NCBI GenBank assembly: GCA_040954595.2
Contig: CM082577.2
Coordinates: forward strand, 13,151,903 to 13,215,902
DNA from: Balanoglossus misakiensis
Lineage: Eukaryota; Animalia; Hemichordata
DNA length: 64,000 bases
Direction: 5' to 3'
Part shown: piece by piece, positions 1 to 49,593 of the stretch
How the letters are laid out: each line of letters starts with the position of its first letter
Numbering within the stretch: position 1 is the first letter of the stretch
Program-made: the position numbers and the translations under genes
Notes under the pieces: model-generated
What the model was told of the DNA's origin: nothing
Database searches by the model: none
The model's input: the letters and a program-made list of their open reading frames with translations, nothing else

Positions 1-3000
1 ATGTTTTGGCTGTATTTGCGTGTCAGCTGACAGGTCTTCGCATTCATCAGAAGCTATCGTGCGTCGCTGAGATTTGATTCTTCATAGACGAAAATTATTT
101 CATAACCATACCAAATAAAACATTTCCAGAAATTTAGAAGTTTGCAGACTTTTCTGCTAGTAGTCTATTTAGTGTTGAAGTCACGCTGAACTGCCAAATT
201 TAACACAGACTCGCTGTCAATACTCAAACAGTGTACTTCTACGAGTGTGTCCTGTAACTGCCTTCCTTCAATTACCCATGTCATACAACAACAAATAGAC
301 GGTAAACGTTTATGCAATACCAATGAATTTATGTTTTAAAACTGGTCGACAGTCTGGAAATGCATGAACAATCGATTGATTGGATTCCTTAACTTTACTA
401 TTGTATCTTGTATTTTTTTGTAGTTACACTGTGGAAATCGGCAGGCTGCATTGTCAGTTTTTCTGCACATGCGCAGTTCCTCTGTCTTGAAAGAAAAGTC
501 AAATTTCACCAACTTATTATTGTGCATTCGGAAAATAAACCCCAAATGTTTTCTTTGTGAACAAAAATACTGCCAGTGTGATCTTGTGTTCAAATCCAAC
601 CCATTATTTATGTAAATTGACTTGTGATACCCTCTCTTAGCACAAAAAGCATAATTTCAGCCCCAAAATGGTTGCCATAGAAACATGTGATCACTAAACG
701 GATATCATTTTTGTTCTTATTGAGCCAAGATACCCCTATGGTGAAATTTTTGTGGAAATCGGACCTATTATTATTAAAATTATTATTTTTATATAATTTT
801 TTATTATTTAATTATTATTATTATTACCAGTTAAGGGGTTTAAAGAATTATATAAACAATCTATCAATTTAATAAGCACGGGTGGATTTCCTGTACAATC
901 ATTCGTGATACTTCAGATTCATAAAGACAACATTTTTCAAAGTGGCCTATGTATCTAAAATTGCAGACGACGTTTCAACGCTTACGGTTGGAGATTTTCT
1001 ACCTAATATTCACAAAAAGACCTCGGGTATTGTTAAACACTATTTAAAACCTTGTTACCCGGTGAGTCTGGTGGCGTGTGTACGACAGATCTGAGGTACA
1101 AAACTTCGCTCGAAACCCAACACGAGTTGGAGACCGAGTTTATTTACGTACAACATTGTAGCAATTTTTCGTATGTTTGCGCGCGCTCTGGAATCACGCG
1201 ATGTCAACTAAGTGTGAACGAGCTGTTTCGCGTCGTGTCGTCTGCCCAGTTTTCGTGGCTAAAACGACAGGAATAATACCCCAGTTGGCTTTAGAATTGC
1301 ACATATCATGAGATTTGAGCGCCATAGAGACCGCAGATATCGTGGAACAGGAAGGTTAGTGTTAAAATTATTGTTTTTAATCAAAGTATTGACCTCTGAG
1401 TTATGCTACGTTTGTGTCGGTGTCAAACGGACGCAATGTTTACAATACAAGGCAGCCAAATAGAATCAGAGAAATGAAGAAATATTATCACGATATTTTG
1501 GATTTCGTGTTATTATTTCTCGGGAATTTTATTGTTTTCTCAGACAAGGTGACAGGACAGACACACGAGGCATCTCGCGGTTCCGTTTTGAATGTTGAAT
1601 TTTATGTTTTGGCTGTATTTGCGTGTCAGCTGACAGGTCTTCGCATTCATCAGAAGCTATCGTGCGTCGCTGAGATTTGATTCTTCATAGACGAAAATTA
1701 TTTCATAACCATACCAAATAAAACATTTCCAGAAATTTAGAAGTTTGCAGACTTTTCTGCTAGTAGTCTATTTAGTGTTGAAGTCACGCTGAACTGCCAA
1801 ATTTAACACAGACTCGCTGTCAATACTCAAACAGTGTACTTCTACGAGTGTGTCCTGTAACTGCCTTCCTTCAATTACCCATGTCATACAACAACAAATA
1901 GACGGTAAACGTTTATGCAATACCAATGAATTTATGTTTTAAAACTGGTCGACAGTCTGGAAATGCATGAACAATCGATTGATTGGATTCCTTAACTTTA
2001 CTATTGTATCTTGTATTTTTTTGTAGTTACACTGTGGAAATCGGCAGGCTGCATTGCCAGTTTTTCTGCACATGCGCAGTTCCTCTGTCTTGAAAGAAAA
2101 GTCAAATTTCACCAACTTATTATTGTGCATTCGGAAAATAAACCCCAAATGTTTTCTTTGTGAACAAAAATACTGCCAGTGTGATCTTGTGTTCAAATCC
2201 AACCCATTATTTATGTAAATTGACTTGTGATACCCTCTCTTAGCACAAAAAGCATAATTTCAGCCCCAAAATGGTTGCCATAGAAACATGTGATCACTAA
2301 ACGGATATCATTTTTGTTCTTATTGAGCCAAGATACCCCTATGGTGAAATTTTTGTGGAAATCGGACCTATTATTATTAAAATTATTATTTTTATATAAT
2401 TTTTTATTATTTAATTATTATTATTATTACCAGTTAAGGGGTTTAAAGAATTATATAAACAATCTATCAATTTAATAAGCACGGGTGGATTTCCTGTACA
2501 ATCATTCGTGATACTTCAGATTCATAAAGACAACATTTTTCAAAGTGGCCTATGTATCTAAAATTGCAGACGACGTTTCAACGCTTACGGTTGGAGATTT
2601 TCTACCTAATATTCACAAAAAGACCTCGGGTATTGTTAAACACTATTTAAAACCTTGTTACCCGGTGAGTCTGGTGGCGTGTGTACGACAGATCTGAGGT
2701 ACAAAACTTCGCTCGAAACCCAACACGAGTTGGAGACCGAGTTTATTTACGTACAACATTGTAGCAATTTTTCGTATGTTTGCGCGCGCTCTGGAATCAC
2801 GCGATGTCAACTAAGTGTGAACGAGCTGTTTCGCGTCGTGTCGTCTGCCCAGTTTTCGTGGCTAAAACGACAGGAATAATACCCCAGTTGGCTTTAGAAT
2901 TGCACATATCATGAGATTTGAGCGCCATAGAGACCGCAGATATCGTGGAACAGGAAGGTTAGTGTTAAAATTATTGTTTTTAATCAAAGTATTGACCTCT

Positions 3001-4056
3001 GAGTTATGCTACGTTTGTGTCGGTGTCAAACGGACGCAATGTTTACAATACAAGGCAGCCAAATAGAATCAGAGAAATGAAGAAATATTATCACGATATT
3101 TTGGATTTCGTGTTATTATTTCTCGGGAATTTTATTGTTTTCTCAGACAAGGTGACAGGACAGACACACGAGGCATCTCGCGGTTCCGTTTTGAATGTTG
3201 AATTTTATGTTTTGGCTGTATTTGCGTGTCAGCTGACAGGTCTTCGCATTCATCAGAAGCTATCGTGCGTCGCTGAGATTTGATTCTTCATAGACGAAAA
3301 TTATTTCATAACCATACCAAATAAAACATTTCCAGAAATTTAGAAGTTTGCAGACTTTTCTGCTAGTAGTCTATTTAGTGTTGAAGTCACGCTGAACTGC
3401 CAAATTTAACACAGACTCGCTGTCAATACTCAAACAGTGTACTTCTACGAGTGTGTCCTGTAACTGCCTTCCTTCAATTACCCATGTCATACAACAACAA
3501 ATAGACGGTAAACGTTTATGCAATACCAATGAATTTATGTTTTAAAACTGGTCGACAGTCTGGAAATGCATGAACAATCGATTGATTGGATTCCTTAACT
3601 TTACTATTGTATCTTGTATTTTTTTGTAGTTACACTGTGGAAATCGGCAGGCTGCATTGCCAGTTTTTCTGCACATGCGCAGTTCCTCTGTCTTGAAAGA
3701 AAAGTCAAATTTCACCAACTTATTATTGTGCATTCGGAAAATAAACCCCAAATGTTTTCTTTGTGAACAAAAATACTGCCAGTGTGATCTTGTGTTCAAA
3801 TCCAACCCATTATTATGTAAATTGACTTGTGATACCCTCTCTTAGCACAAAAAGCATAATTTCAGCCCCAAAATGGTTGCCATAGAAACATGTGATCACT
3901 AAACGGATATCATTTTTGTTCTTATTGAGCCAAGATACCCCTATGGTGAAATTTTTGTGGAAATCGGACCTATTATTATTAAAATTATTATTTTTATATA
4001 ATTCTTTATTTAATTATTTAATTATTTAATTATTATTATTACCAGTTAAGGGGTTT

Positions 4057-4378
4057 GTAAATGTACTACGCCAGACAAAGGAAGTAGGAAGAAGGAAGAT
4101 TTAATGCAAATAAAACAAGGCGAAAAGCCCCAACAAAAAGAGACAAATGTCTACCAAAGCAAGCGCAAGAACAAAAGGCAATAAATAAAAAACAAACCTA
4201 TCTATCTAATACAGTAAGTTGCAAACTAACTACCTAAAAACTGGTTGGGCAGGGGCCCCTTCGGTTCCGCTCCCGTGGCATGGGCGAACGAGAAAACCAT
4301 GCTGCAGAAACCGTGGTAGGCCAGGCACTAGGTGGTGACCTATGGCACGAAATGGGGGGCAGGATGTAATCCATAGCC
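4057..4378 (-). repeat. Ngaro split direct repeat B2 (322 bp)
   Basis: No differences from 4681-5002 noticed by eye (offset 624). Confidence 0.95.
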
Positions 4379-4432
4379 ACACCAGAGAGCCGGACCAAAG
4401 GGACAAAGGTGGTGAAAGGGGATGGTGGCGGG

Positions 4433-4680
4433 ATGCAGAGAGAGAATAGCTGGGTTGTCGCACTGACGCGGACAAAGACGCTAACTGAGGAGATTGAGAG
4501 AGCAATTAGAGGATAAGACAAAGGAAATGCAAATGAGTAGAGGGGGGACGCCAGGTGACGCGTGCAAAAGAAGGGGGAAGGAAAGACAAAGGAAGAAGAG
4601 ATAGGGAAGGCAGGGTAGCCAAAAGGGGAAGGCTTCATACATTTACAAACCCAATCTGTGATATCACAGATTGTTATTTT
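4433..4680 (-). repeat. Ngaro split direct repeat A2 (248 bp)
   Basis: Matches 9439-9686 (offset 5006); one mismatch seen (G4577/T9583). Confidence 0.95.
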
Positions 4681-5002
4681 GTAAATGTACTACGCCAGAC
4701 AAAGGAAGTAGGAAGAAGGAAGATTTAATGCAAATAAAACAAGGCGAAAAGCCCCAACAAAAAGAGACAAATGTCTACCAAAGCAAGCGCAAGAACAAAA
4801 GGCAATAAATAAAAAACAAACCTATCTATCTAATACAGTAAGTTGCAAACTAACTACCTAAAAACTGGTTGGGCAGGGGCCCCTTCGGTTCCGCTCCCGT
4901 GGCATGGGCGAACGAGAAAACCATGCTGCAGAAACCGTGGTAGGCCAGGCACTAGGTGGTGACCTATGGCACGAAATGGGGGGCAGGATGTAATCCATAG
5001 CC
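4681..5002 (-). repeat. Ngaro split direct repeat B1 (322 bp)
   Basis: Matches 4057-4378 and abuts A2, recreating the circle junction. Confidence 0.95.
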
Positions 5003-5370
5003 CAAACTGAGGTTGTGGGAAGCATGACCGAAGTGACCCCCATGAGATGTTAGTAGGTTGGTAGGGAACCATTGGAGGCGTAGTGCGGCCAAATGGGTTG
5101 GGTCCTGGGGGACAGACGTGGTCTGGTCGGCCCAGGTGGATGCAGGTATGGGGGAATCCATTGGAGGCACCGGAAGTAGTGCGGTCCAATGGTGGGGGTC
5201 CTGGGGGACGGACGGTGTCGAGTCGGCCCAGGTGGAAGGCAAAATGAGCTGTGAGTTGTGGCTCACAGTTGGAACTCCAATGGAAGCCAGGGATTGGTGC
5301 AGAGGGTACCCGAGGGAGTACCGGCCTGCGTGGCTCACACTGGGGTTAGTAAGGGGGAGACGGAAGTAGA

Positions 5371-6357
5371 CTACTGAAAGGCCAAAGCTCTAAAGGCAGA
5401 ACGCAAGAGTCCTTCGGGCGTTCTAATATATCTACGGTAACAGTCACTAGACCACCTGCCGAGAGTCTGAATAAGGTGGTCTGGGAGATGGGCACTGGCT
5501 GCTGAAGTGGCTGCACCGATGCGGAAAGAGTGGCCAGCGAAGTGTTGAGGATGCAGGCCCAAGCGCGACAACAGCAAGCGGAGACTAGATGTGAAGGTTG
5601 AACGGTCGAGTGCCACTCTTTCAGGTAACAGGAAAAACGGCTCCGTTGGGGTTGTAAGCATCTGTTGGCGAACTTCATAAAATCCTGCGAGCGTCGCCAC
5701 TGGGTACACAGATGTATATGTTGGAAATAACCGAAGGTGGAATCCTTTCCGGTACTGATCGGTTTTCGATGACTTAATGTGAATGACCACGCATTCTGGA
5801 GAGCCTTGTCCTTGGGTGATCTTGATGTCGTTAACGGTCAGGTGGAGTTTTGGATTGAAAACCCGAGTGCTGCATGTAAATTCACTGCAACGGAGGAAAC
5901 CATAGAAGGCAAGCAGGAAGGCAGATTCCAGCAGTAAATCGACGTATGGACCAAAGATCCCCTGACGTAGTAGCACACATAAGCGTTGTAGAATGTCTAG
6001 CGTGATCGGGAGTCGCGGACGTGATGCTTGACCTTGGAGTCGCAGTATTCCCCTGAGGACCAGATGAAGGCGAGGGTGAAATTGTCCTTGCTGTGACACC
6101 AAAGGGTTGTTGAGACCGGCACGCACGTAATGATTCCGGATTGCAGCCAAGTAGGTGCGAAGAGTGGTGTATTTAAGGTGACAGTTCGTAGCACAGTGAA
6201 CCACAAAGTAGATGAGAAAGTCCTCTGACGCTGGTGGGTATTTTGGTGACTGACCTCTGATGTTGAACAAAGCCGTGAAACGAAGCCACGCACGAACCCC
6301 TGTGCTGTAAGTCGAAACTGTTCTTGGGCTGAGTGATGCCGACTGGAAGGTTGCCAA
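5371..6357 (-). CDS. Tyrosine recombinase of the Ngaro retrotransposon (no AUG; frame open upstream to 6462)
   Basis: Catalytic motifs FLRCSEF (R), SKTDQ (K), HSFRIGAAT (HxxR), LGRWSSDCYRRY (W/Y); N-terminal SAM-like region STYSTG...TLRTYLAAIR. Confidence 0.95.
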   Translation of the reverse strand: MATFQSASLSPRTVSTYSTGVRAWLRFTALFNIRGQSPKYPPASEDFLIYFVVHCATNCHLKYTTLRTYLAAIRNHYVRAGLNNPLVSQQGQFHPRLHLVLRGILRLQGQASRPRLPITLDILQRLCVLLRQGIFGPYVDLLLESAFLLAFYGFLRCSEFTCSTRVFNPKLHLTVNDIKITQGQGSPECVVIHIKSSKTDQYRKGFHLRLFPTYTSVYPVATLAGFYEVRQQMLTTPTEPFFLLPERVALDRSTFTSSLRLLLSRLGLHPQHFAGHSFRIGAATSAASAHLPDHLIQTLGRWSSDCYRRYIRTPEGLLRSAFRALAFQ

Positions 6358-6365
6358 AGCTTCGT

Positions 6366-7973
6366 TCAGTCGAACATTATGTTGGAGGGTATTTGGCAGG
6401 GTGTGGCAGACGCGTGTGGGGCTTCCTGACGAAACCGTTGGTTCTGAAAGCGAGATAAAGAGTCAGCAATTACATTCAGCTTACCAGGGATATGCTCTGC
6501 CTGGAACATGAAGTTATTGGTTGCTGCTGTGATAACGAGTCTCCGCATGAGTTTCATTATGGCGACCGACTTTGAACGGCCTTTGTTGATAATGTGGACC
6601 GTGGCCATGTTGTCGCAATGGAACACGATGCGCTTACGGCGCCAGTTATAACCCCACAATAGACAGGCCACGACTATGGGATATAGTTCGCAAAAGGCAA
6701 TTGACAACGTTGGGTCGTCATGGGGGTCCAAGCCGTGTTGCCAACGTTCCTGAAACCATTGCCCGTGGAAGTAACCGCCGTGGCCAATACCGCTCGCGTC
6801 GGTGAAGAGCTGCATGCTGTCTGCTGGGGTGATAGTCGTTTCCAGGAATAAGGAAATCCCGTTCCACTCAGAGAGGAGGTAGTGCCACATTCGTAAATCG
6901 CGTTTGCTTTCTGCCGAAATGGTGATGAAGTGGTTCAGATGTTTAGCGGACTTAGACAGTTCTATTAGCCGTGAAATGAAGGTACGACCGGGAGTGACAA
7001 CTCTGCATGCAAAGTTCAGGTGACCTAATAGACTTAGTAGCTGTCGTTTCGTGCACGATTTCCGCTTGAGGAAAGAGTCTAGTAAGTTGCGCATGCGGTT
7101 GAGTTTGTCAAGAGGCAATCTTGCTTGCATCTTGATGGTGTCTAACACTATTCCCAGGTATTCGAGCGAGGTGGCTGGGCCGACGGTTTTGTGCGGAGCA
7201 ATAGGGATTCTTAAGCGCTGAAAGATCAGGGTGAGGATGGCCATCGTGCGGTCCGCGTCGAAAGATGGAGCATCGACTGTCAGGAAATCATCCAGCAAAT
7301 GGAAAATTGTGTCGATGCCATAATTGTGGTGCGCGATCCAGCAGACGGCAGACGACAGACAATCGAAGATCTTTGGGCTCGAGCGTGACCCAAAGGGCAG
7401 GCGGACGAAGAAATAGCAACTGCCATCCCATTTAATCCCGTAGAGGTGCCAAAGAGACTCGTGAATAGGTATGAGCTTGAAGGCATCGACAATATCTGTT
7501 TTACACAGCCAGGCTCCAGCCCCAACCCTTTGAATTGCGGCTATGGCATCGTCAACTTTCACGTAGGTTAACGAGAACTCGTCTTTATCAATGAGGTCGT
7601 TAATGCTGGGGGTATCAGCTAAGTCACGAGGCGAAGACAAGTCCACGATTAAGCGTTTTTTCGAAGAGTATTTCTTTTCGACAATGCCGATAGGGCTGCA
7701 GCGATACGATAGGAACGGTGGTTCGTCGAAGGGGCCGATCAAAAACCCCTTCTTCACCTCAGTGTTGATCAAGTCCGTAACTGCATCGGGTTCGTTGCGG
7801 GCTGATAGTAGATTCGGGCAAACAAACGTAGAGGACGGAGGATCCCTCACCCCGGTGTCGAAGCCGTGGCGTAGGCCGCTAAGCAGATATTCAACAAATG
7901 CACGTTCAGGATGGTTTCTAAGTTCGAACTCCAAATTATCGATGTGAACCGGTGTGGAAACAGCAGAGTGTAG
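6366..7973 (-). CDS. Reverse transcriptase / RNase H (DIRS/Ngaro type)
   Basis: RLIVDLS, KTDIVDAF, LPFGSRSSP, HLLDDFL, YLGI; RNase H motifs FTDASG, CELYPI, HCDNMA, IADSLSR. Frame is open from 7973, directly after the gag TGA. Confidence 0.96.
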   Translation of the reverse strand, partial: LHSAVSTPVHIDNLEFELRNHPERAFVEYLLSGLRHGFDTGVRDPPSSTFVCPNLLSARNEPDAVTDLINTEVKKGFLIGPFDEPPFLSYRCSPIGIVEKKYSSKKRLIVDLSSPRDLADTPSINDLIDKDEFSLTYVKVDDAIAAIQRVGAGAWLCKTDIVDAFKLIPIHESLWHLYGIKWDGSCYFFVRLPFGSRSSPKIFDCLSSAVCWIAHHNYGIDTIFHLLDDFLTVDAPSFDADRTMAILTLIFQRLRIPIAPHKTVGPATSLEYLGIVLDTIKMQARLPLDKLNRMRNLLDSFLKRKSCTKRQLLSLLGHLNFACRVVTPGRTFISRLIELSKSAKHLNHFITISAESKRDLRMWHYLLSEWNGISLFLETTITPADSMQLFTDASGIGHGGYFHGQWFQERWQHGLDPHDDPTLSIAFCELYPIVVACLLWGYNWRRKRIVFHCDNMATVHIINKGRSKSVAIMKLMRRLVITAATNNFMFQAEHIPGKLNVIADSLSRFQNQRFRQEAPHASATPCQIPSNIMFD

Positions 7974-9384
7974 TCAGTTCCTTGACGGGCGTTGGGAGGT
8001 AACCATGGTCGCGATACACTTTCCCGTTACTGAATTGTGGTCGCTGGAGAAGCAAGCTGTACAAACGTGCGCGTAGGGACAATTGATCCTCTTGCAGTTA
8101 TTAGCTGAATTGAAATTATTGCAAATTTCTTTGCCTTGGAAAAACAGCCGTTTGCGGCCATTTCTGTCAATCGTGGACGTAGACTGCGAAGTTATACCGG
8201 AACCGGCTGCGATGCCTGGATGGGCTTTCTTGGCTGGAAAGGCTAACTGTGGGCATACCTCCGTTGTGTGGGCCACCGATTGACACACATTACACGTGTT
8301 GGCACGCATCCCGGCGAAGATTGAACAATACAACGTTGTATCGCGACGGGACCAGTCCACTTTGATGTTGTGGTTCAGAAGGAGAGCTGCGGCCCTAGCC
8401 GAAAATGCCCGATGGTACTCATAGTATACTAGGCCGCTGAAACGCGTGGACATATCCACGATGTCCCTTTCGTAGGCATCGAGTTCTACACGCCGATTAT
8501 TGTAGACGGAGCACATGACATTTTTGTAAACAGCGAATAAATTCCTGGATGGACAGGGCTCGGGACAACCTGGAATCTTGGGGAGTTTTCAACGTGAACG
8601 CTTCGTCGCCCAAGATTACGTGGCGCTGCCCTTCCGATTTTTTATAACCGGGTATCAATAGGCATGCAAGGTTGACATCCTTACCTGCCAAGATGTCCCG
8701 CCGGATTGAAGGAGAGACCAGTTCAATCTGTGGCAGTTGCTCGGACGATGTACCGCGCGTTGAAAGAAGCTGGTTGAACCCCCCGTCCATAATGGAATCG
8801 CCCGTATCCGGCGTGGGTTGGTCGTGACCCTGAACTTCTGCGTTCGCTGCTCGGGCCCCGACGGCGTGGGTAGCGACGTGTTGATTTTGAGCGACCGTCT
8901 GATTCTGTTGGTTTGGTCCTGGTAGCAGGAGGTGCTGCTGAACGATTCTTGTGAGGTTTACAACTGCTGTTTGAAGTTCGGCAAACGACTCCGCCGACAC
9001 TGACCCCGGCCCCGTGTTTGAGGTTGGTGCGGCAACAAAAGGTTGGTCGGGTAGGGTCACTGCAGCTGTGCGTCCTCGGCTGGCGCTCCTCTGCTGGACC
9101 GCCAGAACGTCCGGATCCGTTACCAATCTTGACGACCCCGCTTGACCCATTTCGTCAGGGACCTCATAAGGCTGACGCACCAGCTGGTCCCCACCGGTCG
9201 CTAAAATTGGGCTGGTGTGATGGCCGGGACTCACCGCGTCCTGCGTCGCAAAACTTCCTGGATCAGTGCGGGAACGGGTCACCGGCCGCTCGTAAGGGGC
9301 CACTCTGGTTCCTCGACCTCGACCCCTGGGGGCCTGGACGGTAGCTCGGCCTCCAATCGATGGTCTTTTACGGCGGGCTGGCAT
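7974..9384 (-). CDS. Gag-like protein of the Ngaro element, split by a frameshift near 8535-8540 (ORFs 8497-9384 and 7974-8516)
   Basis: ATG at 9384; IRRDILAGKDVNLACLL; LSIQEFI continues in another frame as FAVYKNVMCSVY; YYEYHRAFS...VDWS; C-terminal CxxCxxxxHxxxxC and CCCH-like fingers. Confidence 0.85.
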
Positions 9385-9438
9385 AATGCGTTGCGTTGAA
9401 GGGTTGAATAAAGTTGAGGTGAACGAGAAAAAGAAAAA

Positions 9439-9686
9439 ATGCAGAGAGAGAATAGCTGGGTTGTCGCACTGACGCGGACAAAGACGCTAACTGAGGAGAT
9501 TGAGAGAGCAATTAGAGGATAAGACAAAGGAAATGCAAATGAGTAGAGGGGGGACGCCAGGTGACGCGTGCAAAAGAAGGGGTAAGGAAAGACAAAGGAA
9601 GAAGAGATAGGGAAGGCAGGGTAGCCAAAAGGGGAAGGCTTCATACATTTACAAACCCAATCTGTGATATCACAGATTGTTATTTT
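9439..9686 (-). repeat. Ngaro split direct repeat A1 (5' terminal, 248 bp)
   Basis: Matches 4433-4680; contains the perfect 22-bp palindrome CAATCTGTGATATCACAGATTG. Confidence 0.95.
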
Positions 9687-11351
9687 AAAGAATTATATAA
9701 ACAATCTATCAATTTAATAAGCACGGGTGGATTTCCTGTACAATCATTCGTGATACTTCAGATTCATAAAGACAACATTTTTCAAAGTGGCCTATGTATC
9801 TAAAATTGCAGACGACGTTTCAACGCTTACGGTTGGAGATTTTCTACCTAATATTCACAAAAAGACCTCGGGTATTGTTAAACACTATTTAAAACCTTGT
9901 TACCCGGTGAGTCTGGTGGCGTGTGTACGACAGATCTGAGGTACAAAACTTCGCTCGAAACCCAACACGAGTTGGAGACCGAGTTTATTTACGTACAACA
10001 TTGTAGCAATTTTTCGTATGTTTGCGCGCGCTCTGGAATCACGCGATGTCAACTGAGTGTGAACGAGCTGTTTCGCATTGTGTCGTCTGCCCAGTTTTCG
10101 TGGCTAAAACGACAGGAATAATACCCCAGTTGGCTTTAGAATTGCACATATCATGAGATTTGAGCGCCATAGAGACCGCAGATATCGTGGAACAGGAAGG
10201 TTAGTGTTAAAATTATTGTTTTTAATCAAAGTATTGACCTCTGAGTTATGCTACGTTTGTGTCTGTGTCAAACGGACGCAATGTTTACAATACAAGGCAG
10301 CCAAATAGAATCAGAGAAATGAAGAAATATTATCACGATATTTTGGATTTCGTGTTATTATTTCTCGGGAATTTTATTGTTTTCTCAGACAAGGTGACAG
10401 GACAGACACACGAGGCATCTCGCGGTTCCGTTTTGAATGTTGAATTTTATGTTTTGGCTGTATTTGCGTGTCAGCTGACAGGTCTTCGCATTCATCAGAA
10501 GCTATCGTGCGTCGCTGAGATTTGATTCTTCATAGACGAAAATTATTTCATAACCATACCAAATAAAACATTTCCAGAAATTTAGAAGTTTGCAGACTTT
10601 TCTGCTAGTAGTCTATTTAGTGTTGAAGTCACGCTGAACTGCCAAATTTAACACAGACTCGCTGTCAATACTCAAACAGTGTACTTCTACGAGTGTGTCC
10701 TGTAACTGCCTTCCTTCAATTACCCATGTCATACAACAACAAATAGACGGTAAACGTTTATGCAATACCAATGAATTTATGTTTTAAAACTGGTCGACAG
10801 TCTGGAAATGCATGAACAATCGATTGATTGGATTCCTTAACTTTACTATTGTATCTTGTATTTTTTTGTAGTTACACTGTGGAAATCGGCAGGCTGCATT
10901 GCCAGTTTTTCTGCACATGCGCAGTTCCTCTGTCTTGAAAGAAAAGTCAAATTTCACCAACTTATTATTGTGCATTCGGAAAATAAACCCCAAATGTTTT
11001 CTTTGTGAACAAAAATACTGCCAGTGTGATCTTGTGTTCAAATCCAACCCATTATTATGTAAATTGACTTGTGATACCCTCTCTTAGCACAAAAAGCATA
11101 ATTTCAGCCCCAAAATGGTTGCCATAGAAACATGTGATCACTAAACGGATATCATTTTTGTTCTTATTGAGCCAAGATACCCCTATGGTGAAATTTTTGT
11201 GGAAATCGGACCTATTATTATTAAAATTATTATTTTTATATAATTTTTTATTTAATTATTATTATTATTACCATTTGACATATTGTTTTTGCAGTGAATG
11301 TTCTAGATTGACAGCAACTTACATTGTATAAGAGGCACTATGACTAGTTAC

Positions 11352-11450
11352 CTTTGAATCTTTTGTGACATTGGCACGTTTCTTCAGAAGTATGGTAACA
11401 GCCTCTGCATCACCATTTCGTGCACAAGCATGAAGTGCTGAAAGGCCATC
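11352..11450 (-). CDS. ankyrin gene exon E47
   Basis: 99 nt AG/GT; DGLSALHACARNGDAEAVTILLKKRANVTKDSK. Confidence 0.9.
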
Positions 11451-14400
11451 CTGAAAACAAGGAAGAAAATAATTTGTTTTACAGTAATTAATAAGGTTGA
11501 GTACATGTTAGAGTTCAAATAAATATTCATTTGTGGCACTGGAATGCATCAAAATATCCAAAGATCACATGTAAAATCATTCTGTCAGTCAATGAAGTCA
11601 ACACCATTGCAAATTTGTTTTTCTTCATAGTGTGGTTGAAGGATAATATAACATATTACCGGTATATCGAAAAGTTTATCCACTCAAAAACTATTGACAC
11701 TCAAAACGTTTTGATATTTAAAAATATCTCTTAATTTACCTCCAAATGGTCATCTATTTTAACCCCAGCTTTCACAAGGCCATCTACCATTACTTCATCA
11801 TGTTCTTTCACAGCCCAAAATAGTTGCTCAATGTTCGAGGAACTAGGCTACAATGGTAAATTTGATATAAAATGATTATTTTTCTAAATTTAAAATCTTT
11901 AGCGAAATATGAAAGTGTAATCAACTTAACACTCAGTAGTTGTCTGGTGCTGTTTGCATTATTTAGTAAATGGCACTGTCCTGTTGAATAAACGATATGT
12001 GCATACTATCATACATAAAAAAAATATTTCATACTATCATAAATAAAAAAAATATTTATGTGGACTGTCTTCTAAATACAACAAACTATTTCATCGGAAT
12101 GGTTGTAATACACTGCTATCACTGTTAGCAGAGGTTTTGTCTGTTTAATCTTCTAAAAGTGAACCTTCCGTGGGCCATCTGTTTTTAAATTATCACAAGG
12201 GATTTCTGCCGGTCGAACTTGTGCACCTCAAACATATTTCTATACTGCCTGCAGTTAAACATTATTAATGTTTTCTATAAACAAGAGCTGGATGCAAGTT
12301 TATAGGTGTTCTTTGAAGGTGGTCAAAATGTTAACTGACCCACCCCCTGAGAACACTAACAAAGCAATATAAATACACCTAAATCGTGAATTATAATATC
12401 CATATTGAACAACTGTCATTGCTAAATTTTCATTCCTGTGAATAACCAAATGTGTTTGCTCAAAAATATCAAAATGTTAACGGATTCTTATGGTATCCCC
12501 AAAAGCTCAATAGCACTCAGACTGCTGTTTCAGATATTTGCTACATATATGCATTATTTGATCAAATCTAATGTGAGTGACACCTAGAACATCAAATTCA
12601 AAGCAATTGATCCAGCAGTTTCTAAGAGATTTTTTCCATCAAAAAGAACAATCACTTTGGCCTTTGGCTCAGAAGCATTAGACTACTTTTTCAGATTTTT
12701 GCTTTATATGTAATATTTACCATAGTTTAATGGGAGCGACACCTAGAAACTTCATACCAAATTCATAGCAATCAGACCAGCAGTTTCTGAGAGCTTTTTC
12801 CTTTGAAAAGTGCAATGCTTTTGCCTAAATATTACAATCAAAATGTAATGAGAATAAACAAATCCAAGGAAAGTAACCCTTGGGAAATCTAAGACCAAAG
12901 CCATACAATTAGAAATGAGGAGGAGAAATTGATTGTTGATGGACAAGGAATGCAGGATAAGTGAGAAACACTCACTGACAATCGCCATTTCTTATAATCT
13001 CTGCTTCGGTCACAACAGAGCAAAAATATCTTACCACATTTTTATGTAGACAAGCATTTGCATTGAGCAGTTGTCGAGTAGACTTGATGTCCCGAAATTT
13101 GAGAGCACAATAGAGTGGTGTATGGCCATCCTTTAAAAAGTACAAAGAAATGTTCATTTATACTTTATTTGAACTTTATAAAATATATCTGAGAATAACC
13201 CAGATTTTATGGTGTCATTGTCATCACGAAATCTTTAATTCTCAAAATTTTCACTGAAGCAAGTATTAACGGAGTCTTTAGAAAAGAAAACCAGGTCAAA
13301 ATGTTGTACCACCCACCTTATTGTCTATATTGAGGTCAACTTTGTTGGCTATTAATGCCTTTACAACAAGACTGTGTTTTTTCTTTACGGCATGATGCAG
13401 AGCTGTATTACAAGCCTAGGAAAATTGAATATATACAATAAATAAACATTCATTCATAGCTACAGTGTAGACAATTTATTTATAATCTAAACACACAGTC
13501 AATGCCGAGGTCAGAGAATAACCAATGACCACAAACTATTGTTATTAAAAGATTTAGTTGAATATATAACTGTCCACTTCGCAAGAATATCAAAATATGG
13601 TGAGACTTAATTCAAATTATAAATTAAATTTAAAAAACATGAAAATGAAATAAATATTCCCAATTCTGAAAAATTGAAATGGAACATTATGGTAACTAAT
13701 GGAACATTATGGTAACTATCTGTAATTGTAGGTTTTGGCTTTACATTGATGAAACATACCATGTCTGTTTGGTTTTTATTTGACCCAGCTTGTAACAGAA
13801 CATCCACTGCCTTGGGAAAATTGTTGGCTGCAACTTCGTGAAGTACACTCATACCAGCCTGTCAACATGAATGGAAGTTGTGATCTGTGACATAACACTT
13901 GTTAACAATGAGTATTTTTGCTTGTTGGCAAAGCTCGGGTTTATAATCAAATTAAACAAAATATTTAGCTGTTTTAACATTATGCAATATGAACAAACTG
14001 AATGCAATATTCTGGCAGATAATATTTAAGCAGTATATAAAATCCAAGGTAATTTACAGAGAACAACAGATTGCTGTTGGTGGCACTGTTGTTATTAATG
14101 TGCAAAAATATCATTCAACATAGCTAATATTTTTTGTTATGATATACCTCATGCTAATACTGTGCCGTGATTCGCCAGAATCCGTCACGTGATAGGAAAA
14201 TAGAATCGACTATGAACCGCTAGGGAAATAGCAGAAAAAATATAAACCGGTCACGTGACCAACGTAGTCACATCAATCAGCGTCGTGTCGTCTGACACAT
14301 GGCCACCGCTGAAGATGTCATCTGCCAGCCTCAAGAGAAAATTGCAAGATTTTCCCAGCTGTTAGCATGAGGTTTATTATAAAACACCTATAGCCTGGCC

Positions 14401-20400: not shown

Positions 20401-23400
20401 GCAACTATATTTATACACTTAGCGTCTTTGAAAACTTTTACAAAAATACTCATCTGATTATTTTCAATTATCGCTGATATCAGTACACATTAACCCTTTC
20501 ACCACCATGGTTCCGTCCAAACCCATTGTTTTCTGTGGTGAGGTTGGACCTCTAAACAGGGAACTGGGGTGAAAGGGTTAAGAGAATCTGCTTGAAAAGT
20601 AAATTAATGTAGAACAGATAAAGGTTTGAAATGATTGAGATGTTTTCCATGAAAACATGGTTCAGTACACATTGGAGGGGATAATTAAAAGCAGTGAAGC
20701 TTATGCTTACCTTATCAGTTATGTCCACATTTGCCTTGGATTCACACAGAAGTTTTATTATATCCTTATTGTTTTTCTGCACTGATACATGCAACGGGGT
20801 GAGCCCATACTGTTGAGAGAAATGATTACTAGTAAATATTACTGACTGTCATTATAAACGTGACGTACCAGTTCAATGCTAAATATGTTTTTCCCAGCTA
20901 TTATTCTGATTGCATGAGTTAATCTATTTTCTGTTTTGGATATTCTTACACTAAAATTCAGCATGGAAAACCTGATTTATAAAATGGTAAATACATGTAC
21001 ATTGTGTTCATAATGCGAACAAATGCCCCGAAACCTTAAAATAAAAGAAAAAGATATGGTTATGTAACGCAAAAAACGTGGCATAGGAAATGGTCAACAA
21101 AAGCAATGTAATTTTCCAATCATACTTACCTTATCAAGTTTGTCCACATTGGCTCCATACTGCAGAAGAATTTTTGCTGCTTCGATATCGGACTTCTCTA
21201 TTGCTGTGTGAAGAGGTGACTGTCCTTCCTATACACGCAATTGGCCAAGGAAAAGCACATATACGTTACCATTGTATAAATCTCGTGGAACACTCCTACA
21301 CTGAAAATTTCATCATAACACTGGAGAATTGCCGATACATGCAAACGACACTTCATGAATACATTTATAATTTTAAAAAACCATCAAGGTCAGTTAAGAT
21401 GCAGCCTCTATGTTTTTATCCCAAATTTCGGAATTTTAAAGCACAAGAATGTTAAACTTTATATTTTTCCATTCCTGTTCTGTGCTTACTACCACAGGTG
21501 TACAGGGTACATTATTTTCAGACGTACATGCTTCATATTTTTCAGATAAACAAACACTGTATGTTACAGATTTCATCATAATTATAGTAAAGTGTCTTTT
21601 TAAACTTTGCTCCCAACAAAACTTTGTTCAGTATGCAAATTAGCAATTAATGATGTTGGTTAATGTGTGTGGTATTTTGGAAACACAGTCATTGTCAATA
21701 ACATAAACGTTGTATAAATTGTTAAATTGGGAAATTATGCATGACTTGATTGTCACTCTATCAAGCAGAGTCTATACACTTGGGCTAGATACAAAAATTG
21801 GAATAATGAATATAGCCATATGATGCCTGGGAGTTATACATCATTTACATCACCTCTTCCATCATGGATAAAATGCTATTTGACAATTACCTCTCCAAGC
21901 TTGTTGATTTCTGTGTCAATGCCACGCTCAATAAGACATCTAACTGCTTCTTTGCTTTGCATAGGAGGGGATAATTAAAAGCAGTGAAGCTTATGCTTAC
22001 CTTATCAGTTATGTCCACATTTGCCTTGGATTCACACAGAAGTTTTATTATATCCTTATTGTTTTTCTGCACTGATACATGCAACGGGGTGAGCCCATAC
22101 TGTTGAGAGAAATGATTACTAGTAAATATTACTGACTGTCATTATAAACGTGACGTACCAGTTCAATGCTAAATATGTTTTTCCCAGCTATTATTCTGAT
22201 TGCGCGAGTTAATCTATTTTCTGTTTTGGATATTCTTACACTAAAATTCAGCATGGAAAACCTGATTTATAAAATGGTAAATACATGTACATTGTGTTCA
22301 TAATGCGAACAAATGCCCCGAAACCTTAAAATAAAAGAAAAAGATATGGTTATGTAACGCAAAAAACATGGCATAGGAATTGGTCAACAAAAGCAATGTA
22401 ATTTTCCAATCATACTTACCTTATCAAGTTTGTCCACATTGGCGCCATACTGCAGAAGAATTTTTGCTGCTTCGATATCGGACTTCTCTATTGCTGTGTG
22501 AAGAGGTGACTGTCCTTCCTATACACGCAATTGGCCAAGGAAAAGCACATATACGTTACCATTGTATAAATCTCGTGGAACACTCCTACACTGAAAATTT
22601 CATCATAACACTGGAGAATTGCCGATACATGCAAACGACACTTCATGAATACATTTATAATTTTAAAAAACAACATCAAGGTCAGTTAAGATGCAGCCTC
22701 TATGTTTTTATCCCAAATTTCGGAATTTTTAAAGCACAAGAATGTTAAACTTTATATTTTTTCATTCCTGTTCTGTGCTCACTACCACAGGTGTACAGGG
22801 AACATTATTTTCAGACGAACATGCTTCATATTTTTCAGATAAACAAACACTGTATGTTACAGATTTCATCATAATTATAGTAAAGTGTCTTTTTAAACTT
22901 TGCTCCCAACAAAACTTTGTTCAGTATGCAAATTAGCAATTAATGATGTTGGTTAATGTGTGTGGTATTTTGGAAACACAGTCATTGTCAATAACATAAA
23001 CGTTGTATAAATTGTTAAATTGGGAAATTATGCATGACTTGATTGTCACTCTATCAAGCAGAGTCTATACACTTGGGCTAGATACAAAAATTGGAACAAT
23101 GAATATAGCCATATGATGCCTGGGAGTTATACATCATTTACATCACCTCTTCCATCATGGATAAAATGCTATTTGACAATTACCTCTCCAAGCTTGTTGA
23201 TTTCTGTGTCAATGCCATGCTCAATAAGACATCTAACTGCTTCTTTGCTTTGCATTGGAGGGGATAATTAAAAGCAGTGAAGCTTATGCTTACCTTATCA
23301 GTTATGTCCACATTTGCCTTGGATTCACACAGAAGTTTTATTATATCCTTATTGTTTTTCTGCACTGATACATGCAACGGGGTGAGCCCATACTGTTGAG

Positions 23401-26400
23401 AGAAATGATTACTAGTAAATATTACTGACTGTCATTATAAACGTGACCAGTTCAAAGCTAAATATGTTTTTTTCCAGCTATTATTTTGATTGCGCGAGTT
23501 AATCTATTTTCTGTTTTGGATATTCTTACACTAAAATTCAGCATGGAAAACCTGATTTATAAAATGGTAAATACATGGACATTGTGTTCATAATGCGAAC
23601 AAATGCCCCGAAACCTTAAAATAAAAGAAAAAGATATGGTTATGTAACGCAAAAAACGTGGCATAGGAAATGGTCAACAAAAGCAATGTAATTTTCCAAT
23701 CATACTTACCTTATCAAGTTTGTCCACATTGGCTCCATACTGCAGAAGAATTTTTGCTGCTTCGATATCGGACTTCTCTATTGCTGTGTGGAGAGGTGAC
23801 TGTCCTTCCTATACACACAATTGGTCAAGGAAAAGCACATATACGTTACCATTGTATAAATCTCGTGGAACACTCCTACACTGAAAATTTCATCATAACA
23901 CTGGAGAATTGCTGATACATGCAAATGACACTTCATGAATACATTTATAATTAAAAAACCATCAAGGTCAGTTAAGATGCAGCCTCTATGTTTTTATCCC
24001 AAATTTCAGATTTTTAAAGCACAAGAATGTTAATCTTTATATTTTTTCATTCCTGTTCTGTGCTCACTACCACAGGTGTACATGTTACATTATTTTCAGA
24101 CGTACATGCTTCATATTTTTCTGATAAACAAACACTGTATGTTTTAGGTTTCATCATAATTATAGTAAAGTGTCTTTTTAAACTTTGCTCCCAACAAAAC
24201 TTTGTTCAGTATGCAAATTAGCAATTAATGATGTTGGTTAATATGTGTGGTATTTTGGAAACAAATACAGTCAATGTCAATAACATCAACACTGTATAAA
24301 TTGTTAAATTGGGAAAATATGTATGACTTGATTGTCACTCTATCAAGCAGAGTCTATACACTTGGGCTAGATACAAAAATCGGAATAATGAATATAGCCA
24401 TATGATGCCTGGGAGTTATACATCATTTACATCACCTCTTCCATCATGGATAAAATGCCATTTGACAATTACCTCCCCAAGCTTGTTGATTTCTGTGTCA
24501 ATGCCATGCTCAATAAGACATCTAACTGCTTCTTTGCTTCTAAGGTGCAATGCAGCTTCACAAAATAGAATGTGTGAAGTTGCAGGTTGGATTGCTCCAT
24601 TTGATTCAATGGAGGGTGTCTGTTGAAGGAACAATAAAACTGAAATGTTTTACAAGTGCCAATTCAATTTGCTTCAAAGATATTTGGCTGTGAAAAACAG
24701 CTGAAAGACTTTAAGGTTGTTTCATGTTAATCTCTTCAATCTACATTACTTACTCTATGATGAACTTAGTTAACAGCTCTTACATCCATTTTAAATACTA
24801 TGAAATCAAGTTGTATCCATTTTTTAATGTTTACAATGTTATTTAATATACAAACGATTTAACATGATTTAATGGTGTAGCTGATTTTTAGAAAAGCAAA
24901 ATAGATTATGAATATGAAAGTATGTCCCGATGTGCTTCAAAAAAGGGCAAAATATTGCACAGTTTCAAAAACAGGCACCTACAAGATGTATTTTCAGAAA
25001 TTGGACAAGTATTACACTTTGGTTTGACTCAATTTGACTAAATTGCCCACTCCCAATAGGCTATTTCAGATTTCATTTCAATTTTAATTTCTTTTTTCAT
25101 GTCATGAAATCAGGGATTTGAATATGCAATCTTGCATGATAAGCTCTGCGTTTTTAACAGTGGATACAAAAAAGATATGTTGTATACACTGTAAATGAGA
25201 GTAGTATGTAGGTATCAACACAAATATAGGGATACGGCACCAAATCACCTACTAGCACAGGGAATCAGTTTTAGGAATGATGTACATCACATCAAAACAT
25301 GATCTGCAAAATGACCATGATAAACATGATGCTATGTGAAATATATTATTCCAATAATAAATATGGTATATATCATTTACTGAAACAAGCACTGTCATTT
25401 CACAAACACAATGCAAACCTATACATTTAGCTTGAGCCATTGACATCAAGAAACATGTATGGTTAGATAGAAATATTTACTATTTAGTATGTATTGAAAA
25501 TGAATGTTATAAGTACCCTTCTTGGAACAAAACTGCCTCCAGCATCACGAAGAAGTTGTGCATTTCCTTTGCATCCGTTTAGAACTGCGTAATAAAATGC
25601 TGTGTGGCACTCCTGGGAATAACAAAAAATCAATTAGTATTAAACAAATTGCTGTGGTTTATTGTATTAAACACTTAAAGGGCAAACATTTTTTTAACCG
25701 GTCCTAAGTTCAAACTCCATAATTAAACATTCACAATTAAAAAAAATGCCACTATTTGAAAAAACAACAACATGATGGTCACACAAACGATGCAGCTTGC
25801 CCAATCCCCAACAAAATAACAAGCAATTCCAGGGAAGATTTTGGCATTAACAAGTAAGCTTTTAAGCTCATTTCCATACTGTATATATCCATGATGTATC
25901 TACGCACGAATTTTCGGACAAAAGAGTTTACATTGCCATTATTACTGGTACATTTGTGAAAACGAGTAATGGTTACATCAACTGTGGTCTTGCACAATTC
26001 AGTCAAACTTTTGAGAACACATCCTTCTCAATTAATATTAAAACACTGTTAAATCTGTTAGACTCCAATTGAAATCACTTTCTACATACGTGTCAGTAAC
26101 AGTCATATCATGTATGTCATGTGGCATTATTTAAACTCATGACACTGACAAAAAATAACCACTATAATCTTATTTACACAAAATGGTAAACATATTCTGA
26201 ACTTATGCAGATTAATAAATGAATGGATATCAATAGCCTAACAAAGAAACCCAAACAACATCAATGCAAAATGTAACAACATATACCACAGCCTAATTCT
26301 AAATTCACATGTTAGTATTGTCTGCCTGGTAAAACTAATTTTTCTCATCAAATAACAGTAAAACTTGCCTCCTTTTGTACGTATGTTATAAAACAATCAA

Positions 26401-44400: not shown

Positions 44401-47400
44401 ATCCTCGACTGTTCATAACATTTCTCCCAAAAGTAACAGCTTCTGTACAAATAGAAACTCAGTTGTGTATCTCCTCTCACATCCGGTAAACTACTATCCT
44501 ATCACAGACAGAATTCCCCCTGTGTAATAATGACAGTTCGAACACTCCAACATAATGCTCTTCAAATACCACCAGTCAGTGATAATGACATTCCTTCGCG
44601 CAGATATCCGTTGCCTGTGAGCCAGAATTTGTGAATATGTAAGTCTTTAAGACACGAACCTCCATTGTGTCTTTGACGTTTTTCTTGGAGCCTCGAGCTG
44701 CGGTTGCCTTAAGGTTGTCTGCAATGATGGTCTTCTTTTTCGACAAAGCCCAGTGAAACTGTGCTGGAAATGATGTATCTTGCTAGAAAAAAGTTTGTTG
44801 TCAAAGAAATGTCAGTGAATGCGGGAGTAAATGAAGCAACGCACTGTTTTATACATTTTACGCGCTCATCACGTTATCAACATTTTGGGAAATTTCATGA
44901 TATTTTTCAGAATGTACTAATTTTAGGCCACATAGATGTATGCTTTGATGTACATAAAAAATGTTATAACATTTAAGTATAGTGCAGGAGCTAAACCCCA
45001 AATTTTGGCATAATTGTGCACTTTGGGTTAAAAGCATGAAACTTGGTACAGTTATGCATTGACCCATGGCGGACATTTTCTGGTATGGATCCCAAAATAC
45101 AGCGGCCTCTAGTGGCCAGAAACTGACATTCATACATCAAAATTGTGCACTTCCGGTTAAAAGCATGAAATTTGGTACAATTATTCATTGACCCATGGCG
45201 GACATTTTCCAATATGGATCCCAAAATACAGCGGCCTCTAGTGGCCAGAAACTGACATTTACACTTTTCCCCCATTAATGGCACTTTTTGGTCAATTGTA
45301 ACACTCAGAAACAGGAATATGGGTTGTAAAACATGCTAGCTGCCATATATTCTTTTGAATATTATCCTAATCCTGATGTACATGTACCAGATCAATCTAG
45401 TATTTTACTAATTGAACAATTTGTTCTTCTGTATAACAGAACCAGTTGAATACACAAAGTCATGCAAAGGGGTAAGACAACACATCTTCTCCAGAAAGTC
45501 AAGGGTTCTCGAGAATATTCCTTCTTCACATGTAGCTCTTAAAGAACATGTGCTATGAGAAACCTAGCAAAGCTATATCAAACCAACAGAATCCCAGTGG
45601 AAATCAAAGTGGACAACTCTTAGTCAAGCCCAAGAAAAGAGTCAACCTCAAGAAATAAGTTGCAAAAAGTCATGCACATGTTTCTGTAGGTGCTTTAGGT
45701 CTAGTCTGACAGCAGTGCTCTTTGTTACTGTGAAGAAAGATGTCATCAAGATTGATCTGATACATGTACATCAGAATTAGGATAATATACAGAGGAATGT
45801 ATGGTAGCAAGCATGTTTTACAACCCACATTCCTGTGTTTGAGTGTTAAACTTGATCAAAAAGTTCCATCAATGGGGGAAAAGTGTAAATGTCAGTTTCT
45901 GACCACTAGAGGGCGCTGTATTTTGGGATCCATATTGGAAAATGTCCGCCATGGGTCAATGAATAATTGTACCAAATTTCATGCTTTTAACCCGAAGTGC
46001 ACGATTTTAAAGTATGAATGTCTGTTTCTGGCCAATAGAGGGCGCTGTAATTTTGGATCCATATCAGAAAATGGCCGCCATCGGTCAATGCATAAGTGTA
46101 CCAAGTTTCATGCTTTTAACACAAAGTGCACGATTTTTTGGTTAACTGCCCCACTATTAGGCCATTTTGTCATAAATAAGTGTTTACTTCTCAGGCAATA
46201 TAATTTAATAGACAGAATTGAAAGCTTATCCGAGATTTTTCATCGAGTTGCAGCTCACGTAGCTTTAATAATCACAGTGACATGATGTCAAGTGAAGATC
46301 CACATGCGCGTGCCTATAATATTGATTCCTGAGATTAAACGACTACCTGATGGGCAGAAATGCATACGTTTGTTAAAAAAGTTTTATACACTATGAAATC
46401 ATTTTAAAAGTAAGTATTGTAACAAACTAAACATTCGTAGCTTACCACATTTTGGGCAATCTTTGCCTTTTTCTCAAGAAGAAATAAGGCAGCCGCACTT
46501 TTGTTCTTCTCAACTGCCAAATAAAGGGGCGTTCTATCACCCTGGTGAATAAATAGATATATCGGTCCTAAAACGGCCCAATACACTTAATTTCGCATTG
46601 CTTCTGCCTACCCTATTAGACATCTGGATAGAGATTTCAATGCGTGTGTTTAGCGATACTGCGCTGATAAAATGACAGCGCATTTGAGCTGTTGTTTGCT
46701 GCCAAAGGTGGAAGTGAGAAGTCCATAATATACGTATTATTTATTTCATAAAATATAAAATAATCTCTGCATGTATATGGACGTTCCCTTGTACGCTGAA
46801 TAGCAAAATTCTATCCATGCAGGCCACACATTAAAGCAATAACAATTAAAAGTCAATAAAATACCTTATCAACAGGGTTTATATCCGCTTTGTTGTCGAC
46901 CAATAGCTTTATCATTTCGGTTGTTCCGAATTGGCTTGCAAGGTGCAGTGGGGTTTTATCATCCTTCACAACATGAAATTTAGACATAAAATTAAAACTA
47001 ATAAAATTTACCCTCAGTAAACAATGCACTCTCATTGACGTAGAAAAGTGTCAGTAACTGCTGGGTTGAAAAAGGAGTATAATCAAGTCTGTCATTCGTG
47101 TTCAACAAACAGCACTGCTGTATTTTGACATATTATTCCATTATTCCAACCGAAACGCATCATTGGTCCTAAAATATCACAAACACATGCACTTAGAACA
47201 ATACATAACCGAATGCATGATGTTACAAACATCTTCCACAAAGATTACTGCAGGAGCTAGGTGCCGTTAATCAGAATTTTTGGTAAGGAAGGTTTGAGAA
47301 GTCCATTCTATGTAAAACATGGTGCTGATTCCAAAAATGTCAGTCTTATTGACCCCACTCAAGACAAAATTGCCATTTTGGCCAATTTTAACCCAAAAAT

Positions 47401-49562: not shown

Positions 49563-49593
<31 letters not shown>

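Follow-up and report, generated by a model that had tools for sequence, protein, structure and literature searches.

A candidate folded attachment site, split between the element ends, at the repeat junction of a hemichordate Ngaro retrotransposon

The internal repeat junction of a Ngaro retrotransposon from Balanoglossus misakiensis carries a nested hairpin, raising the question of whether the tyrosine recombinase of such elements acts on a folded single strand or on a duplex. The element was analyzed within a 64,000-nt stretch of contig CM082577.2 (the window), where it spans 4054-9686 on the minus strand (5.6 kb) and is an ordinary family member, its parts following in the order A1, gag-like frames, RT/RNase H, tyrosine recombinase, B1, A2, a 54-nt unique piece and B2 (Table 1). 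The A1-ORFs-B1-A2-B2 split direct repeats, the RT/RNase H and recombinase ORFs in one orientation and the lack of a target duplication are all shared with Ngaro as described in the available portions of PMC8547959, PMC9210276 and PMC3783388. A search of the element for a Dam methyltransferase domain gave no match at E<=1, the RT frame stopping after RNase H; this absence is a Ngaro trait, whereas DIRS1-like and PAT-like elements carry the domain. No Pfam match was obtained for the frames at 7974-9486, and the division of this gag-like region between two frames may mean that a frameshift is programmed or that this copy is broken there. The element itself is of a known kind; the same portions of the Ngaro literature assume a double-stranded circle and a trinucleotide crossover and contain no description of a junction hairpin. 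A literature search returned no proposal of a folded site for Ngaro or DIRS, its reach ending short of the founding Goodwin/Poulter papers, which may mention inverted repeats at the junction.

The insertion sits within one copy of a 1603-bp tandem unit whose neighboring copies show the empty site. Comparison of empty and filled units revealed no target-site duplication, one TTT belonging to the host and the other to the end of the element, and the match between A2 and A1 runs on to 4680 because this host TTT is shared. With 1/248 differences between the A copies and 0/325 between the B copies, the insertion is young. The tandem unit occupies 1-4053 and 9684-11276 with copies 99-100% identical, and contigs matching 9729-9900 of the unit were found at a depth far above that of the element. 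No Rfam match was found in window positions 1-12000 at E<=0.1.

Table 1. Coordinates of the Ngaro element, its junction hairpin and its target site in the window.
Feature	Position	Strand	Remarks
Empty target site in neighboring 1603-bp tandem unit	2442-2444 (also 839-841)	plus	
Repeat B2, element 3' end	4054-4378	minus	Bears the 5' basal arm only
Unique segment separating A2 and B2	4379-4432	minus	
Repeat A2	4433-4677	minus	247/248 identical to A1; match to A1 reaches 4680
Basal stem, 3' arm	4638-4649	minus	Within repeat A2
Bubble, short side	4650-4651	minus	2 nt here, 3 nt in most families
Apical stem	4652-4673	minus	9 bp + 4-nt loop; 22-nt palindrome
Bubble, 4-nt side	4674-4677	minus	First 4 nt of the 7-nt spacer 4671-4677
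Crossover step, B end/A start	4677-4678	minus	From other copies in the sample; same step in 22/23 elements
Basal stem, 5' arm	4678-4689	minus	Last 12 nt of B1; predicted binding arm of the cleaving monomer (putative attC R box analogue)
Repeat B1	4678-5002	minus	325/325 identical to B2
Tyrosine recombinase ORF	5371-6462	minus	363 codons, open; catalytic residues kept; R191, K233, H311, R314, W337 and Y345 conserved
Reverse transcriptase/RNase H ORF	6366-7973	minus	Open
Two overlapping frames (8497-9486 and 7974-8588)	7974-9486	minus	Gag-like by position only
Repeat A1, element 5' end	9439-9683	minus	Includes bubble and apical stem plus the 3' arm of the basal stem; no 5' basal arm
Host TTT of the filled site	9684-9686		

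The hairpin had been noticed in a first-pass annotation made from the letters of the window, and its coordinates, arms and palindrome proved exact: the two 12-nt arms are perfect reverse complements of each other and the 22-nt sequence between them is a perfect palindrome. On either strand, DNA folding gave a 9-bp apical stem separated from a basal stem by an internal bubble, with -15.1 kcal/mol (z -7.23) for the plus strand and -16.0 kcal/mol (z -7.87) for the minus strand. For either strand, 0/200 shuffles were as stable, and a chance palindrome was rejected. The annotation had drawn one arm across the A/B junction; this arm is in fact wholly the terminal 12 nt of B1. The basal stem is missing at the A1 end (z -2.2/-2.5), at the B2 end (0.3/0.7) and at the empty host site (-0.4/0.0). 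What the window contains is the internal B1/A2 junction, which is the genomic template of the circle junction.

The analysis was extended to relatives of the element using an alignment of 77 recombinases, which led to 112 loci, with 16 more from host contigs inside five binned genomes; the recombinase search found no relatives in viral contigs. The nearest named relatives of the window recombinase are hemichordate proteins (64-65% identity), and the closest relative of the element is L003 (61% recombinase identity). The binned prokaryote genomes G001-G005, G008, G009, G011 and G012 hold contigs with many animal-type retroelements, likely as host contamination, with dozens of DIRS-order element contigs in G012. 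A total of 23 complete A1..B1A2..B2 elements, the window element included, were delimited by self-comparison with no use of structure, to which were added seven elements with one repeat pair and seven junction-like hairpins found by scan alone, giving 37 junctions. Removed before counting were L081 (a false pair in a short tandem repeat), L063 (repeat off the junction, no B2) and L005, L007 and L020 (contig-end repeats). The same fold across the junction was present in 23/23 complete elements and in all 30 repeat-defined junctions, with a sense-strand layout of basal arm, cut, 7 nt, apical arm, a 3-24-nt loop, apical arm, usually 6 nt, and basal arm. This second side of the bubble has 5 nt in the window and 7 in one element, so counted, and the bubble is asymmetric and partly paired. 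Most families have TTAA boxes; in the window element and L003 the basal boxes read CAAA/TTTG, and in L127 the boxes are quite different while the geometry is unchanged and the A repeat starts at the same step. A weak Dam match (E 0.14) in L127 suggests that it may be PAT-like. In L127/L150, B2 is truncated, and copies of a ~2.4-kb repeat stand on either side of the element.

A geometry scan, designed once the first junctions were known, matched 37 of the 104 loci with at least 500 nt downstream, compared with 13/520 shuffles. The matches comprised 27 junction-type hairpins and 10 other or low-complexity sequences and included 20 of the 23 complete elements. Looser criteria produced many chance matches. 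Most of the 67 scan-negative loci have no detectable split repeats, being truncated, old or collapsed, and are therefore uninformative. Extra four-box, junction-like sites were seen by pattern in the animal-type contigs of the binned genomes (L129, L130, L135, L138 and L140), away from the fetched recombinase loci, some pairing well and others degenerate.

In the window itself, the TTT shared by the element end and the host leaves the crossover step ambiguous over three bases. Other copies of the element, seen as assembled contigs of one sample, have A repeats reaching 4677, 4679 or 4680 and B repeats starting at 4677 or 4678, with unrelated flank beyond. The only step fitting all copies is 4677/4678, so the TTT common to the host here is incidental. 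This step is the edge between the basal stem and the bubble, and the A1 start and B2 end fall at the same edge in 22/23 complete elements, the exception being L117, an old copy with no spacer at its 5' end. B2 was never found extended across the 7-nt spacer in the 23 complete elements, its longest extension being 3 nt. The first-pass annotation had named a crossover TTT bordering the bubble, but a 3-nt TTT homology is not needed: 8/22 elements have no base in common with their target. The TTT was rejected both as a target duplication and as a required homology.

Targets were compared over 21 elements, the table being drawn up without L117 (5' end off the cut) and L067 (left flank shared with L066); the two flanks of each target were taken as one event, an assumption that L066/L067 show can fail. 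Target positions +1 to +7 matched the element spacer at 43/147 positions, which is chance, with a match at +1 in 4/21. The four nucleotides before the cut resembled the basal box (43/84 compared with ~26 expected). Several elements sit in tandem repeats (L095, L150 and the window flanks), and targets may be repeat-biased or structured. L071 lies at the center of a long inverted repeat, the left arm of which also flanks L049.

The first-pass annotation had also expected cross-junction complementarity to be kept in related families, and this was borne out by compensatory changes. Grouping reduced the 37 junctions to 24 families, of which 19 are repeat-defined. With the register set by the TTAA boxes alone in 16 families, the eight variable positions scored were Watson-Crick paired in 101/128 cases, the permutation mean being 43.8, the maxima in 20,000 permutations 64 (column shuffle) and 73 (family swap), and slid controls giving 22-36. 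RNAalifold, applied to a plain MAFFT alignment of 23 families (L127 being left out for its long loop), recovered the structure unprompted, with double changes in 12/15 pairs and a covariation score of 0.561 compared with 0.187; 0/500 shuffles reached the observed pairing. Among 14 disjoint element pairs, of which about half are true sisters in a quick tree, 37/46 double changes keep the pair, six single changes are retained as G-T and 23 changes break a pair, mostly at stem edges. This recombinase tree is a quick tree only, covering the fetched loci and not L003 or L127. Between the window element and L003 there are eight compensated double changes and one break. The families are related, so that the permutation and shuffle tests overstate independence; relatedness does not explain the number of double changes seen. 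The apical stem is contiguous in the listed families, with no extrahelical bases. As anchored here, all 24 families have a G facing +1. This G is absent in L198 and L209, and its invariance is partly built in, the register having been anchored on it where the automatic fit slid by one base in several loci.

Conserved pairing of this kind could in principle be a by-product, the palindrome representing four copies of a self-complementary protein-binding box in duplex DNA with no folded function, and in most families the four TTAA-like boxes would indeed pair in any combination. However, positions outside the boxes are also paired, including spacer positions +6 (19/19 repeat-defined families) and +7 (17/19), with four Watson-Crick pair types, and the geometry is kept in families with other boxes (the window element, L003, L127 and L094). 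The pairing data already largely refute this explanation, which we consider very improbable. The symmetry could also be of the duplex type. At positions -5 to -8 the hairpin partner was paired in 16, 13, 13 and 8 of 16 families (50/64) and the duplex-dyad partner in 4, 3, 4 and 6 (17/64), so that the symmetry is nested, as in a hairpin, rather than adjacent, as in a duplex dyad.

This comparison bears directly on the strongest competing explanation, in which the recombinase uses a double-stranded circle and acts on its junction as a duplex (an arm, a 7-bp spacer and an arm in inverted orientation), independently of homology as in Tn916/Tn1549, while the hairpin serves transcript or cDNA maturation through template switching, end joining or packaging. 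The box-N7-box arrangement is the canonical duplex layout, and the targets contain a weaker second box 7 nt downstream (37/84, 25.6 expected; 21 targets), amounting to a weak second half-site at that spacer length. The published model, in the accessible parts of PMC7192593 and PMC3266345, is a double-stranded circle, and the Tn1549 Int, according to the part of PMC5871717 at hand, melts duplex crossovers itself. The predicted structure of the window recombinase is a Cre-like fold (pLDDT 92), and among its ranked matches Cre chains came first (E 5e-11), with IntI 2A3V far lower (2e-5). Furthermore, in Ngaro and DIRS1-like elements alike, the internal junction copy folds more stably on its transcript strand. 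On the other side, a loxP- or dif-type site with inverted arms and a homologous 6-8 bp spacer is not what the junctions present (dyad pairing 17/64, spacer identity 43/147): the arms are symmetric by hairpin and not by dyad, and the two spacer-flanking arms of the window are not inverted copies of each other. Two exchanges without homology should also leave 7-nt shifted ends in some copies, yet such ends were found in 0/23 complete elements, the pattern being a single fixed crossover at the arm/spacer edge in 22/23 with no second-exchange products, and its coincidence with the edge of stem and bubble would have to be fortuitous. Taken with the compensatory changes, the position of the ends at this edge makes a folded-DNA recombinase site the best explanation, and we regard action on the duplex junction as unlikely.

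As a conserved structure the folded, split site is real, and it is probably functional as folded DNA. In the reading that we favor with reasonable, though not strong, confidence, the hairpin would be an attC-like attachment site of the Ngaro recombinase, used as a folded single strand in one exchange that is resolved by replication. According to the part of PMC5871717 available, cleavage by tyrosine recombinases puts the 3'-phosphotyrosine on the side of the arm, while the spacer receives a free 5'-OH; given this polarity and a spacer on the bubble side, the 4678/4677 cut must be on the element sense strand, the minus strand of the window. The first-pass annotation had folded the plus strand, as the sense of the first-strand cDNA, and this is probably not the strand that is cut. 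The sense strand gave the more stable fold in 23/24 families, and G-T pairs outnumber A-C pairs (8 compared with 2), but a G-rich strand is favored anyway. The preferred strand is also that of the transcript, so that the covariation and the tolerance of G-T would suit an RNA hairpin equally well.

The mechanism envisaged for the folded site is as follows. Two recombinase monomers would bind the two stems, like the R and L boxes of attC, the apical stem and its loop being by analogy the predicted arm of the non-cleaving monomer and the counterpart of the attC L box plus variable terminal structure. The monomer on the basal stem would cut the element sense strand after the basal arm, and this single strand would be exchanged with a duplex host target loosely resembling the site, the pre-melted bubble removing the requirement for homology. 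Host replication would then resolve the branch, giving an insertion without duplication, and the duplex genomic copy would be largely inert. As for the origin of the folded sense strand, it may speculatively arise during second-strand synthesis, where the minus strand, with its sole B1/A2 copy, would splint a plus-strand circle and one plus junction would stay unpaired, or else by cruciform extrusion from a double-stranded circle. Precedents in excerpts of the cited papers are that single-stranded cDNA of DIRS-1 can be integrated (PMC7192593) and that attC and CTX attP are sites of a folded kind for which replication provides the resolution (PMC2727003, PMC4792948, PMC3089051). Several points count against it: the ssDNA of DIRS-1 is antisense, in the available text of PMC7192593, and the Ngaro reading needs the sense strand; the circle has two identical junction copies, one of which must be chosen; the enzyme is close to Cre, a duplex enzyme, and not to IntI; L117 has lost the spacer from its 5' end; and some loci described below (L084, L203, L212, L215, L186 and L193) depart from this geometry.

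In the version given by the first-pass annotation, a first-strand, antisense single-stranded cDNA circle would fold and be integrated directly. DIRS-1 accumulates antisense single-stranded cDNA (same portion of PMC7192593), the antisense fold in the window is nearly as stable as the sense fold (-15.1 vs -16.0), and the antisense strand of the DIRS1-like terminal junction has a matching layout. Applied to the antisense fold, however, the polarity rule puts the cuts either ahead of the far basal arm or between +7 and +8, and no mapped end matches these positions; the antisense fold is the weaker in 23/24 families. We consider this route highly unlikely for Ngaro.

Comparison of the proposed sense-strand site with known systems brings out both likenesses and differences. 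As far as the consulted portions of PMC2727003 and PMC4792948 describe it, attC likewise has four boxes nested as a basal and an apical stem, a central spacer left unpaired, a terminal loop that varies (3-24 nt in Ngaro), structure conserved above sequence, a crossover at the basal box and strand asymmetry. In contrast, attC has AAC/GTT triplet microhomology with its target, whereas the Ngaro site needs none (8/22 sharing zero bases, +1 matching in 4/21); attC has extrahelical bases in its apical (L) stem, whereas the Ngaro site lacks a conserved one and carries its asymmetry in the bubble; and the enzymes are IntI and a Cre-like protein, respectively. Unlike attC, the Ngaro site is split at the element ends and rebuilt from the internal copy by reverse transcription. 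In CTXphi attP(+), according to the accessible text of PMC3089051, two inverted sites anneal within one strand and unmask the attachment site, a single strand is exchanged and the integrated ends cannot re-form the site, as in the reading proposed for Ngaro. CTXphi borrows the host XerCD, targets dif only and forms a ~150-nt forked hairpin, whereas Ngaro encodes its own enzyme and has a hairpin of ~45-70 nt and loose targets. Tn916/Tn1549 Int (available part of PMC5871717) resembles Ngaro in homology-independent insertion, a 5-7 nt melted or mismatched crossover and AT-rich loose targets; Tn1549 works on a duplex with two exchanges and one required base pair, whereas in Ngaro folding itself would supply the mismatch, and the ends are of one type only.

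Folding was also applied, beyond the Ngaro junctions, to 13 DIRS1-like ICRs taken from the same binned genomes. Like the Ngaro junction, the ICR is an internal copy of the end junction, as described in the available text of PMC3266345 and PMC7192593. The ICR strand, which is antisense at the termini, was the more stable in 10/13 elements, and the six elements in which both ends were mapped all have them joined at AA(N), close to the top of a basal stem in the folded ICR strand. Folds with a basal stem near AA(N) were seen in L146:8362-8482, L160, L161, L163, L165, L170, L173, L179, L181, L183 and L184, and the apical arm of several DIRS1-like ICRs begins with TTAA. Such a fold fits the antisense cDNA of DIRS-1 (excerpts of PMC7192593) as well as the NTT termini and the partly complementary "divergent ITR" (excerpts of PMC3266345). 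DIRS1-like elements differ from Ngaro in that the fold comes partly from inverted terminal repeats and lies on the antisense strand at the termini, the spacer is variable and a trinucleotide is common to the target in 5/6; as a fold is imposed by inverted terminal repeats, this evidence is the weaker. In L186:9717 and L193:7005 (RT-oriented), which have a DIRS/PAT-type RT and split repeats, the junction lies near the loop of a simple inverted repeat, a loxP-like or apical-cut geometry unlike that of Ngaro. No clear hairpin of Ngaro geometry was found in L084, L203, L212 and L215, where the repeats are collapsed.

It is tempting to extend the proposal to the whole order of tyrosine-recombinase retrotransposons, which would then integrate from a folded ssDNA site as the first eukaryotic attC-like system: Ngaro without homology and from the plus strand, DIRS1-like elements from first-strand cDNA with the NTT "circular junction" as counterpart of the integron GTT core, the split repeats and the ICR rebuilding the site only in the mobile intermediate. 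This wider rule is one that we would sooner hold in doubt than assert, although the balance is close, and L186, L193, L084, L203, L212 and L215 count against it.

A 2016 account confined folded single-strand recombination to integrons and CTXphi (PMC4792948), and the specificity of DIRS-order recombinases had not been studied experimentally as of 2020 (PMC7192593), both according to the portions available. The hairpin supplies a defined substrate of ~50 nt, predicts where and on which strand the cut falls, and offers compensatory mutants ready for use, making the question of DIRS-order integration directly testable. If the folded-site proposal is true, animals too would have folded single-strand recombination, with a self-encoded Cre-like enzyme inserting single-stranded DNA without homology or target duplication, and the odd repeats of these elements and the lack of promiscuous recombination among their genomic copies would be accounted for.

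Elsewhere in the window, a second Ngaro-type RNase H fragment occurs at 61424-61645 on the plus strand (41% identity, E 8e-14), with no recombinase match nearby. A set of regions at 20670-24539, 45012-46135 and 47254-50616, possibly non-autonomous DNA transposons, contains a 1290-bp tandem repeat, a 174-codon frame enclosed by a pair of 387-nt inverted repeats, and ~170-bp units in long inverted arrays.
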